From Octopus vulgaris (taxonomy: Eukaryota): a stretch of DNA of 64,000 nucleotides. Position numbers and translations under genes: made by a program. Positions 4,091 through 54,802 of the stretch are shown here, one piece after another. A model generated the notes under the pieces. That model worked only from the letters and a program-made list of their open reading frames with translations, did not search any database and had not been told where the DNA came from. The stretch covers positions 1,860,001 through 1,924,000 of the forward strand of contig OX597825.1 of assembly GCA_951406725.2 (NCBI GenBank). The letters run 5' to 3'. How positions within the stretch are numbered: position 1 is the stretch's first letter; each line of letters opens with the position of its first letter.

Positions 4091-4408
4091 TAAAGACTTA
4101 TAAACATCTAATTATTGAAGTGGAAAAATTATCAGAAAAAGCCATTTCTATTCTTTCTTTTCATCTACATATAAATATATATAAACTACAGTGTACATTT
4201 AAACACACAAGGAATCCACTCATGGGATTCAACACGCTGGAAAGAACAGCTAGGTTCTATAACCACAAAATTAGGGATAACATTCGACAGCATTCCTTAT
4301 GTGTTTAAATGTACACTGTATTTTATGACTAATACATAGTCTTTGGACTAAATGTTTACACGTTAGGCCACTGGAAGTGATAATTTCTATTAATTTCCAT
4401 TTCCCTTT
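4091..4408 (+). mobile_element. TA-flanked PLE pLTR-like remnant with inverted repeat
   Basis: Inverted repeat 4187-4215 / 4292-4320 (29 bp, few mismatches); the reverse complement of the right end resembles the 5979 terminus (CCAGTGG..TAGTC..AGACTAT..AATACAGTGTAC). Confidence 0.6.
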
Positions 4409-4495
4409 GATATGATTATATATATATGTGTATGTGTGTGTATGTGTGTATACATGTATATATATATACAAACATACATATGCATATATATGTAT

Positions 4496-4825
4496 ATATT
4501 GTTGATAGTGAATTCGAGGTTTCGACCAGTTAAGCCATCGTCAGACTGCAAGGCATTAGAGTTAGTCTTTCTTTTATATAGCCTCTGTAGAGTGAAGAAT
4601 TATCTTTGTGTGTGTGGGGGTGGGCTGGAGTGAGGTGGTAAAGGTAAGAAGACTAAATCTAATGCATCGCAGCCCGACGATGGGTTAGCTGGGCGAAAAC
4701 TTCAATGTCACTGTCAACAACATTCTTGTAGAAGAATAATAAATCTGTGCTCTACAGAAATACGGAACAACCCAACAGATGAATGTAAAATTGTTTTTAT
4801 CATAACTGATTGAACAAACATTAAC
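4496..4825 (+). mobile_element. Old inverted pLTR pair, each arm with a decayed hammerhead motif
   Basis: Arms 4496-4569 and 4649-4723 are about 80% reverse-complementary by eye; consensus AGT-CTGACGA...GAAAC...GTC-ACT; tail runs to (TG)n. Confidence 0.6.
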
Positions 4826-5978
4826 GTGTGTGTGTGTGTGTGTGTGTGTGTGTGTGTGTGTGTGTGTGTGTGTGTGTGTGTGTGTGTGAGCTGCACACGA
4901 CCGAGTATTTAAGGCATCACTCGGAAATGAACTGCCTTTTAACAATGTCTGATGAAAACTGAGGACGAGCGCAAGGTGGGATAACTTATTGACTGCTACA
5001 AAGTCGTCTCTCTCTAGCTCGGAACACTACAAATATAGAACAGAACGGGCGTATCTATTGTTACGTATTACCTGACTTATTTTTCTCATGTCAGCCGCTA
5101 TGCGCTGACTTTGTATTTCTACGTATCACGCTCAGAAACAAGAAGTTTTGATAATCCGCAAAGCTTCTTTGCTAAAATTAATATACTAAGATAAGATAAT
5201 ATCCACAATGCGTCAACGAAATATTTGTCAATTTCAGCGACAGGACAACGCACTTTTACAGGTAAACATGCAATATATATATATATATATATATATATAT
5301 ATATATATAAACACGGGGAGTGTGTCGTTAAAAGCCTGACTGGAGGTTCAACATTCCGTGTTCGTTCACAGAACTTAGAAAATTTGAAGGACCGTTGCAG
5401 TATATATATATTTTTATCTCCAGTATATTTTAAAAATCCAAATCGAGGAACTTTGTTGCACCCCTCGTATGTCTGTCTGTCTGTACATACACACACACAC
5501 ATATACATACGTGAGTGCGTGCATATGTGTACGCACTTTACATATGTGCGTTGGTTTGTATATATACGTGTGTGTGTGTAAGTATCTATATATGTATGTA
5601 TATGTATATAAATATATACATACTCACACATACACAAATACATACATGCATACATACATACAAACATACACACACACATGCATACATATAGAAAACAGTT
5701 GCTGATTCATTGGTAAATTACGTGAATCTTGTGTGTGGATCAGGGACACATGTGAATAATCATGAATGGTAATTGACGTCTGTGTGAAACTCTGAGTAAG
5801 AAGAAGAGTGAATCACCGATTGTTAACATAAGAATATGAATCTCTGAACAATGTATTCGTCGGTCATTTCTTAGCATTATGTGGATAAACAGGTGTACAT
5901 GTGTGTGTGGGTGTGTGTGGGGGAGTTACATGAGTGCATATATATACATACATACACAAGCGCATATATATATATATA

Positions 5979-6593
5979 TTAAAAGTTTAGGGTAGCAAGA
6001 ATATTTATCAGAAAAATTCTTAGTTACCAGTGGTCTAAGCGAGAAGGAAAAAATGAGTCAATAGACTATATATTATTCAAAGAAGAATACAGTGTACGTT
6101 GAAGCAACCCAAAGAATAGGATATCTGACTCGCTAGAAAGAGCAGTTAAACTCCAAGCCTCTAATTGTTGTAATTCCGAAAGTGATTGAAAAATAAAAAC
6201 TTTTACCTTAATCCTAGACCCTGCAAGGTTTCTGCAGCCTTAAATACAGATTGAAATAAGATAATTTCAGTCTATACCTGGCGCTGCATCTTCTGTAGGT
6301 TGCCAAGACTGAACACACAGACACGGAGCTATAAGTAATCAGCCACGTGTTTAGAGGTTCTAATTCTTCGAATCCACCGCACAAATGCAGAACTCAACCA
6401 GCACTAAATAAATAAATTGCCCATTTTCTTCCAAAATTTGCCAAAAAACATTTTAGCATTAATTAAAATCTTAGGGTAGCAAGAATATTTATCGAAAAAT
6501 TCTTAGCGAGAAGGTAAAAATTAGTCAATAGACTCTATATTATTCAGAGAAGAATACAGTGTATTCTGTACAATGTACACTGTATTCTTCTCT
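5979..6593 (-). mobile_element. Partial-tandem PLE pLTR / retrozyme-like element (484-nt period)
   Basis: Direct repeat starting TTAGGGTAGCAAGAATATTTATC at 5987 and 6471; short inverted copy 6576-6593 of 6546-6563; flanked by (TA)n and (TC)n(TA)n; contains a hammerhead motif. Confidence 0.7.
6213..6299 (-). ncRNA. Type I hammerhead ribozyme with long stem II (one core substitution)
   Basis: Minus strand: CCTA-CAGAAGA-TGCAGC...GCTGCA-GAAAC-CTTGCAGG-GTC-TAGG. Stem I CCTA/TAGG, stem II TGCAGC/GCTGCA plus inner hairpin, near-palindromic stem III; core reads CAGAAGA instead of CTGAAGA. Confidence 0.75.
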
Positions 6594-7544
6594 CTCTCTC
6601 TCTCTCTCTCTCTCTCTCTCTCTCTCTCTATATATATATATATATATATATATATATATACTTACATACACACACATATGTATATGTGTGTGAGTATACG
6701 CACACACATATCTCAAGTATATTTATATACAGAGAGAAGGGGAGGCTGTAATACACTTAAATGTAGATAGACAGACAGATAGACAGACAGACAGACAGAC
6801 AGACAGACAGATAGATAGATAGATAGATAGATAGATAGATAGATAGATAGATAGATAGACACACAAAAGAAGAACACATCGTTGAAACCATTTCTTCTCT
6901 GCGTGTGGACTTATGTTGTTTGATGTCTAAGTGACATGTAAGCTCTTTTATCACGGAGGACTGGGAGTTGATGTCATTTCGACAGATATAGCAGGTCTAT
7001 TTACTGACATCTAGGCAGACAGAAAGATTAAGGAGACTGACTGGTTGTTCAGTAGGCAAAGCCGGCAAGGTATGCCATGCAATCAGGCAAACAGGCTGAC
7101 ATAATTACTCTCAGGCACAACACATATTGTTTATTCAGTATGTTGATTAGCTAATTTATTGAAACAATCTTTCGTGTCTCTTGTATTTTCAACGCAGTTT
7201 CTGTTGAGTAAAAATAAAGAAAAAAGAAAAGAAATGGGAAAAAAAACTTTACGCCCAATGAGCGAGTCTCTTTTGCGTTTTCTCTCAATTCGCTAGAAAT
7301 ACCAGGCGGATCTTCATCACTACATTCTACAATGTTAATTCATATTGCACAATATTCCTAGTTTTGCATTTCGTTCTATCTCCCTCTGTCTATGTCTGTC
7401 TGTCTGTCTGTCTGTCTGTCTCTCTTTCTCTCTCTTTCCCTCTCTCTCTAGTCATTGATATTAAAAATAGAAAAATGGTTACGGTAGCAATGCTACTGAA
7501 TGACTTATTATGTCGGCTTATCTCAGGCTGAAGAACAGCAATAA

Positions 7545-52639: not shown

Positions 52640-52900
52640 CTTTTTATCTTGTAGTTGTTTCAGTCATTAGACTGCGGCCATGTAATATGTAATACAGGCG
52701 TTCTAGTTGAACGAGCCCCTATATCCGAATTCTTATTCCTAAGCCGGGAACTTGATCTATTGACCTCTTTTCCGAACCGCAAAGTTACAGGGTCGTAAAC
52801 AAAACAAACGGTGGCTATTTTCAAAACAAACAAAACGCTTGCCCAAGGTGCCACGCAACGGGACTGAACCCGGATTCATGTGGCTGGGAAGTACACAGCC
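52640..52900 (-). mobile_element. SINE family B (internally deleted)
   Basis: GTTTCAGTCATTAGACTGCGGCCATG and CTTGCCCAAGGTGCCACGCAACGGGACTGAACCCGG. Confidence 0.8.
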
Positions 52901-53394
52901 GAAGTAAGAGAAAGTATATATATATATATATATATATGTATGTATAGAAAAGTAAATGAAAGCACAGAAACGTACGCGCGCGCGAGCGTTAATAATTTAC
53001 GAACATCTAATTGTTAAAGCAAATATTATTTACGATAAGAATTTACACATCAACTTCAGAGTAAAACCACTCATGCAGGTCTCCTGCATTTAGTACCTGT
53101 GACTGTCACTCACCCCTACTCCCTTTGTTGTTTTAGTTACCGTCTGCCAAAAGGACCAAGAGGAGACATCGCGTTTTATTATTTGTAAGACATATTGAAG
53201 AGGGGATTAAGTCCGAAATATTATAACTCTTTATTCTATACATTTTACATTTCCTATTCTGCCTAATAATATTAATTGTGAACGTCTCTCCTACACTTGT
53301 TACATTTGTTGTTTCTTAGGCTTTTCTTATTTGTATTTCTTTTCGCTGTGTATATACATACTTACTCACAAACATGCATATCTACACACACACA

Positions 53395-53605
53395 TATATA
53401 TATATATATATATATATATATATATATATATATATATATATATATATATATATATATATATATATATATATATATATATATATATATATATATATATATA
53501 TATATATATATATATATATATATGTATGTATATATATATATATGTATGTATTTATGTATATATATATATATATATATATATATATATATATATATATATA
53601 TATAT
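53395..53605. repeat. Long (TA)n microsatellite
   Basis: Direct reading. Confidence 0.95.
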
Positions 53606-53702
53606 TTGGTTGACGGAGACTGAAAAATCCCGACGAATATATTTTTTATTCATTAATTCTTTTACTTGTTTGAGTCATTTGAGTGCAACCATGCTGACGA
53701 AC

Positions 53703-54802
53703 AGGTGTGGTTTTGTGGTAAAAGGTTTACTTTCCAGCCACGTGGTTTCGGGTCCAGTCCCATCGCGTGACGCCTTGGGCAAGTGTATTCTACTATAACA
53801 TCGGGCTGACCAAAGCCTTGTGAGTGGATTTGGTAGACAGAAACTGATGTGTGTGTGTGTATATATATATATATATAAATAATTAAAAGGGCGGGCAACA
53901 GGCTGCTTCGCCGCATACCGAAGGAATTAGAAATGGCAGCCAAAGACTATTTTTTCCATTTTCTACAAGTGGAGATTCCATATACGACAAACCCTGCGAT
54001 TCACATACGCAAAATCGGAGTAGCAAATAAACGAAAACAATCTCTTACCGTTAATGATGAACATGTTTCTAGATCACAGGCTAAAAATTGCCTGATTTCC
54101 TTCGTCAACACCATATTCGATAGATTTACCAAATGCCACCGGCCTTCACCTCTGACCAAGCGACATCAGATAGTGGGGGGAGGTGTGCAGTTGTTAAAAC
54201 TAAGTAATGACTGGGACCGTAAATTTTCCCTCCAAAATTCTGCTATGCGCGCCACCTGGGTGATCGCAATGGAGTAAGAAATCCACATGGTAATACAATA
54301 AAGGGGTAAATAATTTTTCCGTGGTTTTTCGTACAACCAACAATTATTTACCAGTAAATTTCGGTATGTAAATATGACTTTTAGCGTTAGGAACTACAGA
54401 AGTTCCTGACGTTAAAAGTCATATTTACATACCGAAATTTACTGGTAAATAATTGTTGGTTGTACGAAAAACCACGGAAAAATTATTTACCCCTTTATTG
54501 TATATATATACAGATATATATATATATATATATATATATATATATGTATGTGTGTGTGTGTGTGTGTGTGTATGTGTGTGTGTGTTTCGTTGTATCTGTT
54601 TATCCTCCCACCATCACTTGACAACCGATGGTGGTGTGTTTATGACCTTGTAACTTAGCAGTTCGGCAAAGAGACCGATGGGATCAGTATTAGGCTTACA
54701 AAGAATAAGCCCTAGGGTCGATTTGTTTGACTAAAAATCACTTTAAGGTACTGCTCTAGTGTGGTCGCAGTCAAATGACTGAAAAGTGTAAAAAAATAAA
54801 AG
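53703..54802 (+). mobile_element. SINE family B split by an insertion in its central microsatellite
   Basis: 5' half at 53703-53850, 3' half at 54585-54802. Confidence 0.8.
53878..54503 (-). mobile_element. TA-embedded fold-back insert (~113-bp left arm, 5-nt loop, ~415-bp tail)
   Basis: Hairpin centred on ACAGA at 54406-54410, running from ATACAATAAAGGGG (54293) to CCCCTTTATTGTAT (54503) with 2 mismatches near the loop. Confidence 0.75.

Follow-up and report, generated by a model that had tools for sequence, protein, structure and literature searches.

Paired inverted inserts at TA tracts of an Octopus vulgaris contig, probably derived from the 3' ends of Penelope-like elements

What are the inserts with inverted arms that recur at TA microsatellites in one stretch of the Octopus vulgaris genome, and how were they made? 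The stretch analysed, which we call the window, is 64,000 nucleotides (nt) of contig OX597825.1 (assembly GCA_951406725.2, positions 1,860,001 to 1,924,000); positions below count from its first letter. An earlier note on this DNA had named nine sites (4091, 4496, 5979, 8415, 11311, 11481, 31721, 46746 and 53878) at which a tail, an arm, a spacer and an inverted copy of the arm lie between (TA)n tracts, and had ascribed them to Penelope-like elements (PLEs). We find that the inserts are likely to be of PLE origin or non-coding derivatives of PLEs. We also think it somewhat probable that they are 5'-truncated 3' ends of PLEs, belonging to several families, that entered (TA)n by two priming events.

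Inverted arms were observed at all nine sites, with 18-700 aligned columns, 81-100% identity and spacers of 2-161 nt. The arm pairs are 4181-4215/4292-4326 (35 columns, 94%, spacer 76 nt), 4496-4573/4646-4723 (79 columns, 81%, spacer 72), 6546-6563/6576-6593 (18 columns, 100%, spacer 12), 8413-8432/8456-8475 (20 columns, 90%, spacer 23), 11380-11408/11411-11439 (29 columns, 93%, spacer 2), 11567-11627/11785-11847 (63 columns, 97%, spacer 157), 31721-31779/31941-31999 (59 columns, 90%, spacer 161), 46746-47445/47549-48246 (700 columns, 99.6%, spacer 103) and 54293-54395/54401-54503 (103 columns, 98%, spacer 5). The identities agree with the range of ~80% to ~100% that had been read from the sequence. 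The arm lengths of 17-700 bp hold as well; for the distance of 70-415 bp by which the inverted copy was said to stop short of the anchored end, the upper value falls away, as described below. An unbiased scan of the whole window, with simple repeats masked, arms at most 2 kb apart and 10 shuffles as control, recovered 18 inverted repeats in the masked window against 0-3 per shuffle. The nine sites supply eight of the 18, site 8415 lying below the scan threshold, and the other ten comprise five pairs of short interspersed nuclear elements (SINEs), two repeats resembling miniature inverted-repeat transposable elements (MITEs), a repeat centred on TA, a small hairpin and a match that is probably due to chance. 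Together the nine inserts cover 6.9% of the window. The frequency of one insert per 6-7 kb holds as an average only, since six of the nine sites are clustered unevenly in the first 12 kb; likewise, the inserts are a source of palindromes within the window (8/18 inverted repeats), and a genome-wide claim of that kind cannot be extrapolated from one window.

The window is AT-rich and contains 127 TA tracts of at least 10 nt, along with many other microsatellites. A distal TA tract alone is weak evidence, because a random position has one within 100, 170 or 415 nt in 9, 16 or 33% of cases, respectively. Of the 36 outer ends of arms found by the scan, 10 are no more than 8 nt from a TA run of at least 6 nt (3.3% at random) and 5 no more than 8 nt from one of at least 10 nt (0.8% at random); among the ten are the end of a SINE, the target site of a MITE and a TA run internal to an element. 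A cruder test of tract edges, weak and with little power, was positive at 6 of 67 testable TA edges (two of these being low-complexity matches), at 1 of 102 edges of other microsatellites and at 26 of 1500 random positions. At the level of single inserts, TA tracts of at least 10 nt stand on both sides in six of the nine, in one case by way of a (TC)20 tract, while the 4496 insert ends in (GT)n and those at 31721 and 4181 have a short TA remnant on one side. Inverted arms are present at 9/9 sites, long TA tracts on both sides at only 6/9. The inserts do show the (TA)n insertion preference that we examined as a feature of the Hydra clade of PLEs. Any target-site duplication would be concealed by the TA tracts themselves.

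Hammerhead-like motifs also link the inserts to PLEs. We searched with a scored custom descriptor built on the published PLE pattern, using a score cut-off of 22 and 40 shuffles, and obtained eight hammerhead-like hits at six loci scoring at least 22, against a shuffle mean of 1.25 and maximum of 5. Four of the six loci fall in the nine regions, which make up 8% of the unmasked sequence (p about 5e-4): 6295 on the minus strand, 31915 on the plus strand, 47941 on the plus strand together with its inverted copy, and 54108 on the minus strand. All four motifs read towards the TA-anchored 3' end. The best in the window (6217-6295, minus strand, score 34.9) has one core mismatch and a fold z of -3.64; the motif at 47941-48044 (plus strand, score 32.0) has an intact core, a long helix II and a fold z of -3.77, and that at 31915-31944 (plus strand, score 24.8) shows the U3-A8 core variant (TTGAAAA), which has been reported for PLEs (PMC4209133). 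The inverted copy of the 47941 motif lies at 47051-46948 on the minus strand; both arms' motifs in the 46746 insert therefore read outward, and two copies are joined head to head, 5' to 5'. Insert polarity is set by a strong hammerhead in three inserts (5979, 31721 and 46746), by a partial one in that at 11481 and by tail homology in that at 4181.

The two remaining loci lie outside the nine regions. One, at 31637 on the minus strand, has an intact core and sits in a solo fragment (31490-31693, minus strand, scores 29.9 and 24.9) that lies between TA runs, has no inverted arm, shares a TA tract with the 31721 insert and was no part of the earlier finding. The other, at 32610-32643 on the plus strand, is a second U3-A8 motif (score 23.9) without helix I, between a TA remnant and (TG)n. 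A degenerate hammerhead below the threshold was also seen between TA tracts at 41488-41568 (minus strand); its helices I and III resemble, by eye, those of a Hydra element from coral.

We then consider the tails and the endpoints of the arms. Measured tail lengths are 67, 82 and 100, 90, about 92, 96 and 170 nt, those at 4496 (102 nt) and 31721 (39-241 nt) being uncertain. In 306 pairwise comparisons of 18 segments, the segments 4218-4416, 5980-6463 and 6464-6566 clearly match one another (z = 34, 12.3 and 8.8), and the 11481 insert is borderline (z = 3.4-3.5). A leave-one-out tail profile recovers the tails of 4416, 5980 and 11481 with E = 4e-5, 0.008 and 0.009, the three tails having first been aligned together. 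We refer to the inserts that carry them as A (4181-4416), D (5980-6593) and G (11481-11847). Their tails share a hairpin with one compensatory pair across the three sequences. The motif CCACTGG occurs 8 times in the window against 2.9 expected, and 4 of the 8 matches, oriented alike with respect to the tail, precede its end by 42-53 nt, in the tails of the A/D/G family and in the tail at 11313. As judged by sequence comparison, conservation of the tail would apply to the A/D/G family and the CCACTGG motif only; a universal tail structure was dropped, since all tails gave no common alignment and single folds were weak (z from +0.9 to -2.6). Links of the 11313 insert with the solo piece 41488-41568 and of the 4496 insert with the 31490 fragment were likewise unsupported by sequence comparison. 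Outside the A/D/G family the inserts are unrelated, in keeping with the earlier description of them as mostly different in sequence.

In A and D the inverted arm ends before one and the same homologous base, even though the two copies are well diverged, and in G it ends within about 5 nt of that point. Whether the endpoint of the inverted arm is fixed per family had been proposed as a check, and it is fixed in the one multi-copy family in which this can be asked (A, D and G). The hammerhead cleavage site was considered as the stopping point of the inverted arms and rejected, since it fits the 31721 insert within 4 nt and fails at 46746 and 11481. We also observed that the tail-less junction has microhomology to the tract, of at least 2 nt in eight of the nine inserts (9-17% at random) and of at least 3 nt in six of the nine, one of these at a CT tract (3-6% at random). 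The measure takes the direct copy reading in phase with the tract and is limited to the tail-less junction, the template beyond the tail end being unavailable. Single-copy arms with random endpoints and no hammerheads, named beforehand as the outcome that would speak for a generic fold-back at TA, are not what we obtained, with the endpoint fixed in one family.

Insert A (4181-4416, plus strand) consists of the inverted arm 4181-4215, a spacer, the direct arm 4292-4326 and a tail, 4327-4416, running to (TA)n at 4417, and its match to 5980-6463 (z = 12.3) places it in the family of the 5980 insert. The orientation first given for the 4091 site was the reverse of this; the tail is on the right, because 4327-4416 is homologous to the 5980 tail. 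A separate short piece (4093-4170, minus strand) between the long TA tract and insert A is possibly, by eye, the 3' fragment of another element; the pairwise segment comparison gave it no significant match in the same orientation. The insert at 4496-4825 (plus strand) is old, its arms 4496-4573 and 4646-4723 being 81% identical, with a possible tail, 4724-4825, to (GT)n; each of its arms has a degenerate hammerhead-like motif pointing outward, whose score of 18.1 is inside the shuffle range.

Insert D (5980-6593, minus strand) has a 3' copy, 5980-6463, with a 100-nt tail, a tandem 5'-truncated copy, 6464-6563, and an inverted arm, 6571-6593, that abuts (TC)n(TA)n. The two tandem copies match with z = 34, and the insert is thus a partial tandem plus an inverted copy; such a partial tandem (pseudo-long terminal repeat, pLTR) is present in one of the nine inserts. 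At 6571-6575 the inverted arm is 5 nt longer than the adjoining direct copy, and 4 of these 5 nt match the other copy. At 6589-6660 the inverted arm meets a (TC)20 tract matching the arm's own TCTCT end, followed by a TA tract; this (TC)20 may be either the target or an outgrowth of the arm end.

Insert E (8413-8571, plus strand) lies between two long TA tracts and has arms 8413-8432 and 8456-8475 and a 96-nt tail, its polarity being taken from the geometry only. Insert F (11313-11439, minus strand) has a 67-nt tail with CCACTGG and arms 11380-11408 and 11411-11439 around a 2-nt spacer; the hairpin of its tail (11313-11379, minus strand) has, by eye, an outer stem, an inner stem and a 3' bulge as in three Hydra consensus tails. 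Insert G (11481-11847, minus strand) has a tail of about 92 nt homologous to those of A and D, an arm up to 11627 and an inverted arm from 11785, and its spacer contains, by eye, helix II, GAAA and helix III of a hammerhead whose 5' core has been truncated by the junction. Insert I (31721-32040, plus strand) begins with the inverted arm 31721-31779 at (TA)14, followed by a spacer and the direct arm 31941-31999, and the end of its tail is uncertain. The young insert K (46746-48416, plus strand) comprises the inverted arm 46746-47445, a 103-nt spacer, the direct arm 47549-48246, 99.6% identical, and a 170-nt tail to (TA)n at 48417. Its spacer includes, at 47443-47532 on the plus strand, 29 codons and then a stop just before an (ATT)n tract, a frame that could be the end of the element's open reading frame (ORF).

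The site at 53878 is best divided in two. Segment M (53878-54292, minus strand), which had been taken for a 415-bp tail, carries its own hammerhead-like motif (54108-54060, score 24.0), directed towards (TA)n at 53877 and 182 nt from its TA end; therefore it is probably the 3' end of a separate element, and the palindrome 54293-54503 is tail-less. This palindrome, L, to which no strand was assigned, is near-perfect, has TA on both sides, both arms end at the same base, and both mismatches are within the inner 13 bp. It is either a tail-less PLE pair or a MITE, and may not belong with the other inserts.

Comparison with published elements indicates that the insert layout is already known for PLEs. 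Craig 2021 (PMC8557442) describes a PLE arrangement with an inverted 5'-truncated copy, a one-ended tail of 30-40 bp and targeting of (TA)n. Among the elements that it lists, Hydra-1_Obim, Naiad_Obim and Naiad_Ovul come from Octopus and prefer (TA)n, and Penelope-13_HM carries a 5'-truncated inverted copy. The same layout is described in a rotifer (Arkhipova 2013, PMC3846280), a partial tandem plus an inverted copy is the typical PLE arrangement (PMC8557442, PMC8969392), and PLE hammerhead pairs occur on opposite strands 100-700 bp apart (Cervera 2014, PMC4209133). The inserts thus resemble endonuclease-containing (EN+) PLEs such as Penelope/Poseidon in 5' truncation, pLTR tandem, inverted truncated copy and one-end tail (PMC8557442, PMC3846280, PMC11167929), and also in having a hammerhead motif near the 3' end and paired opposite-strand hammerheads, which here are spaced ~890 bp apart rather than 100-700 (PMC4209133). 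They differ from EN+ PLEs in their tails of 67-170 nt against the stated 30-40 bp (PMC8557442), in being without an ORF, and in the microhomology at the tail-less junction, in contrast to the homology-free initiation of the PLE PAc in vitro (PMC11167929).

By target, hammerhead style and 3'-end pattern, the closest clade, as far as can be judged by eye, appears to be Hydra, in which almost all families target (TA)n and hammerheads are canonical with a short palindromic helix III (PMC8557442). In three of the five new Hydra consensus ends inspected we see by eye, 27-45 nt past the cleavage site, an internal TATA(T) and then a hairpin extension of 54-71 nt, and the other two finish in ATATA at +36 and +46, the same two-end pattern as in the inserts. 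Hydra-1_Obim itself differs by eye from all inserts in hammerhead and 3' end, and membership of the clade turns on motifs of the protein (RWK, DKT, no CCHH and a CxCX5C linker; PMC8557442); no ORF was seen in the inserts. None of six window motifs was found in the accessible supplement of PMC8557442, and neither of two in that of PMC13282606. Naiad PLEs (Naiad_Obim and Naiad_Ovul) share (TA)n targets, an inverted 5' copy and a tail; they are described as lacking canonical hammerheads and, in cephalopods, as persisting only in the form of remnants (PMC8557442), and their 3' ends mismatch the inserts by eye. The inserts have motifs in four of the nine regions, unlike the hammerhead-free Naiads, and the short inserts without a motif are uninformative here. 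Non-LTR retrozymes (bioRxiv 10.64898/2026.07.22.740005) are also non-coding, with a type I hammerhead and proposed PLE mobilisation; they form head-to-tail arrays with a hammerhead per unit, whereas no insert has two hammerheads on the same strand.

The view that several PLE families use TA tracts is upheld by the enrichment and polarity of the hammerhead-like motifs, the partial tandem, the shared tails and the published layout. Linked PLE ORFs had also been expected, and Pfam searches of insert and window frames found none; the direct copies, as 3' fragments of 0.1-1 kb, may end short of any ORF, so absence of protein evidence is expected. From the nucleotide sequence, PLE membership is probable, with the defining ORF not seen, and the families are probably undescribed. 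What may be new are the partly conserved tails, which are two to four times as long as stated, together with the microhomology to the target at the inner junction; the case for novelty is weak. No paper on either point was found in full-text literature that mostly excluded Repbase reports and papers behind subscription, and longer tails are already suggested by the published consensus ends of Hydra elements.

Several points weigh against this interpretation. The hammerhead descriptor is custom and was refined after candidates had been seen, an earlier descriptor barely separated the window (5 hits) from its shuffles (at most 4), and five of the nine inserts have no hit scoring at least 22. Three targeted Rfam scans gave no hammerhead family, nor was there one among the 150 listed of 559 whole-window Rfam matches, the whole-window repeat search and Rfam scan being dominated by microsatellites. 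Only three of the nine inserts form a family, with 3 clearly significant matches among 306 comparisons. In Pfam, the 150 longest of 177 frames of at least 55 amino acids (aa), plus 10 insert frames, gave no reverse transcriptase (RT), GIY-YIG or transposase. A 42-aa frame at 54169-54294 (minus strand), which by eye resembled a GIY-YIG C-terminus, was rejected as unsupported and without homologue, its sole hit being a 1,512-aa, seven-stretch sequence that is not like a PLE ORF. On the mechanism, microhomology is also expected from template switching, in-vitro PLE initiation needed no homology (PMC11167929), the tailed copy is the longer one in both spacer inserts that a hammerhead orients (11481 and 31721), and three of nine spacers are 12 nt or shorter, the last two features being those that fold-back predicts. 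The 29-aa frame in the 46746 spacer had no match, being too short for most tools.

How, then, might the paired copies have formed? Frangieh 2024 (PMC11167929) showed that a purified PLE protein cleaves AT-rich DNA on both strands and extends each of them; in the same work the protein is predicted to be a dimer, reverse transcription begins at two sites whose interval corresponds to the tail, and genomic PLE ends match the two RT start sites. By analogy, each insert would be two complementary DNAs (cDNAs) joined 5' end to 5' end. As (TA)n is identical on both strands, both strands could be nicked; one nick would prime at the far 3' site and give the tailed copy, and the other would pair with an internal TA or TAT 67-170 nt upstream and give the inverted, tail-less copy. 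Both cDNAs would stop early and then be joined. In its specific form we advance this proposal tentatively, as homology-assisted double priming in which both strands are nicked and two fixed start sites bracket a conserved, structured tail of 70-170 nt (hairpin plus CCACTGG). The second priming event that the earlier note had envisaged fits the in-vitro work (PMC11167929), and in this window is inseparable from fold-back copying of the first cDNA.

Such fold-back, the main competing account and one that leaves the PLE origin unchanged, is possible as well, in our estimation doubtfully so. A single priming event would yield a tailed cDNA that folds back or switches template. The inverted arm, copied from that cDNA, would then become attached to the other end of the target wherever a TA-like site first occurs, possibly following cleavage there by the endonuclease. 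Three of the nine inserts have spacers of 2, 5 and 12 nt, which suits this course, as does the longer tailed copy in both orientable inserts; in palindrome L the mismatches in the inner 13 bp look as if an older hairpin had seeded the fold-back, and Craig 2021 attributes the tail to endonuclease resolution of an intermediate (PMC8557442). Six of the nine spacers, however, are 23-161 nt long, cleavage and extension in vitro affect both strands, and the ends of genomic copies coincide with two RT start sites (PMC11167929), and the arm overruns by 5 nt at 6571, a weak point, since the second copy is 470 bp away.

MITEs or foldback DNA transposons with TA target duplications, whose apparent tails would be flanking DNA, are an unlikely source of the inserts as a group. 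TA-targeting MITEs of the Tc1/mariner type have terminal inverted repeats and TA on both sides. That likeness fits 54296-54500 only, which ends in inverted repeats, is bordered by TA at either end, lacks a tail and has a recurring ATTTAC in each arm, and for this palindrome alone we consider a MITE origin about evenly balanced; the window also holds two MITE-like repeats (17019-17254 and 23921-24120). The other inserts have one-sided homologous tails, hammerheads and variable truncation. Their tails are homologous between sites and hence not flank, those of A, D, F and G being shared element sequence, while the two ends of the 5980 copy do not form an inverted repeat, arms and spacers vary in length within one family, and hammerhead-like motifs sit in arms or spacers.

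Generic TA-mediated template switching in replication or repair, duplicating any sequence that adjoins TA, is more unlikely still. It seems to have occurred at 42823-42978, in the order X-Y-X'-Y with the TA-rich centre repeated at 42972-43037, and it too would leave microhomology; none of the nine inserts, by contrast, has a repeated TA-rich centre, and hammerhead enrichment and polarity, shared tails and the same endpoint in two diverged copies would be unexpected from random flanks. A sequencing or assembly artefact from chimeric fold-back reads at TA tracts is very improbable: two palindromes are 98-99.6% identical and such structures do trouble assemblies (PMC8557442), yet five of nine arm pairs are only 81-94% identical and endpoints are fixed at the family level.

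Other features of the window stand apart from the inserts. The inverted repeat at 42823-43037 is centred on a TA/CA-rich stretch, a further copy of which directly follows the second arm (X-Y-X'-Y), and looks like a local template switch at TA microhomology. The repeat at 17019-17254, 236 bp long and bounded by TA, has terminal inverted repeats of 39 bp and by its motif is taken to be a Tc1/mariner-type MITE; a local direct duplication encloses it (16891-16923 and 17536-17568). That at 23921-24120 is 200 bp long with inverted ends starting TTAA-CCC, presumably a piggyBac-type MITE. A SINE-like family is abundant (404-606, 7540-7749, 9586-9814, 11995-12362, 13755-13954, 24845-25047, 38168-38624, 57180-57417, 60447-60625 and others), and there is a second one (14714, 28284-28695, 30077-30357, 35211-35638, 52727-52896, 53650-53847, 54591-54803 and 57959-58324). 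By appearance we assume 26700-27540 to be a decayed mariner transposase and 50340-50760 the 5' part of an RTE long interspersed nuclear element (LINE), neither with Pfam support in the frames tested. Short GC-rich islands amid repeat-filled DNA at 40590-40740 and 44950-45060 are possible exons or conserved elements, and an isolated 19-bp hairpin at 61392-61435 has no TA tract in its neighbourhood. None of the 150 longest of 177 window frames had Pfam support as coding sequence, a frame overlapping a SINE gave no match, no tRNA genes were found in the window, and two exact scans of non-eukaryotic genome contigs for stray copies gave no matches each.

PLEs make up 6.83% of the Octopus vulgaris genome in 190 families (Bonar 2026, PMC13282606), so that the insert coverage of 6.9% is an ordinary density. 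For annotation, palindromes of this kind, 0.1-1.7 kb long, can be mislabelled as MITEs or unknown repeats. The formation of tandem and inverted PLE structures and the preference for microsatellites are named as open questions (PMC8557442), and the window is a sample of short, readable junctions whose endpoints, microhomology and copy lengths can be counted genome-wide; such counts would separate double priming from fold-back. If homology-assisted double priming is correct, one event would write a head-to-head pair, unlike the homology-free start of the PLE tested in vitro, and, at one insert per 7 kb, there would be enough junctions to settle the origin of PLE inverted repeats and tails by counting.

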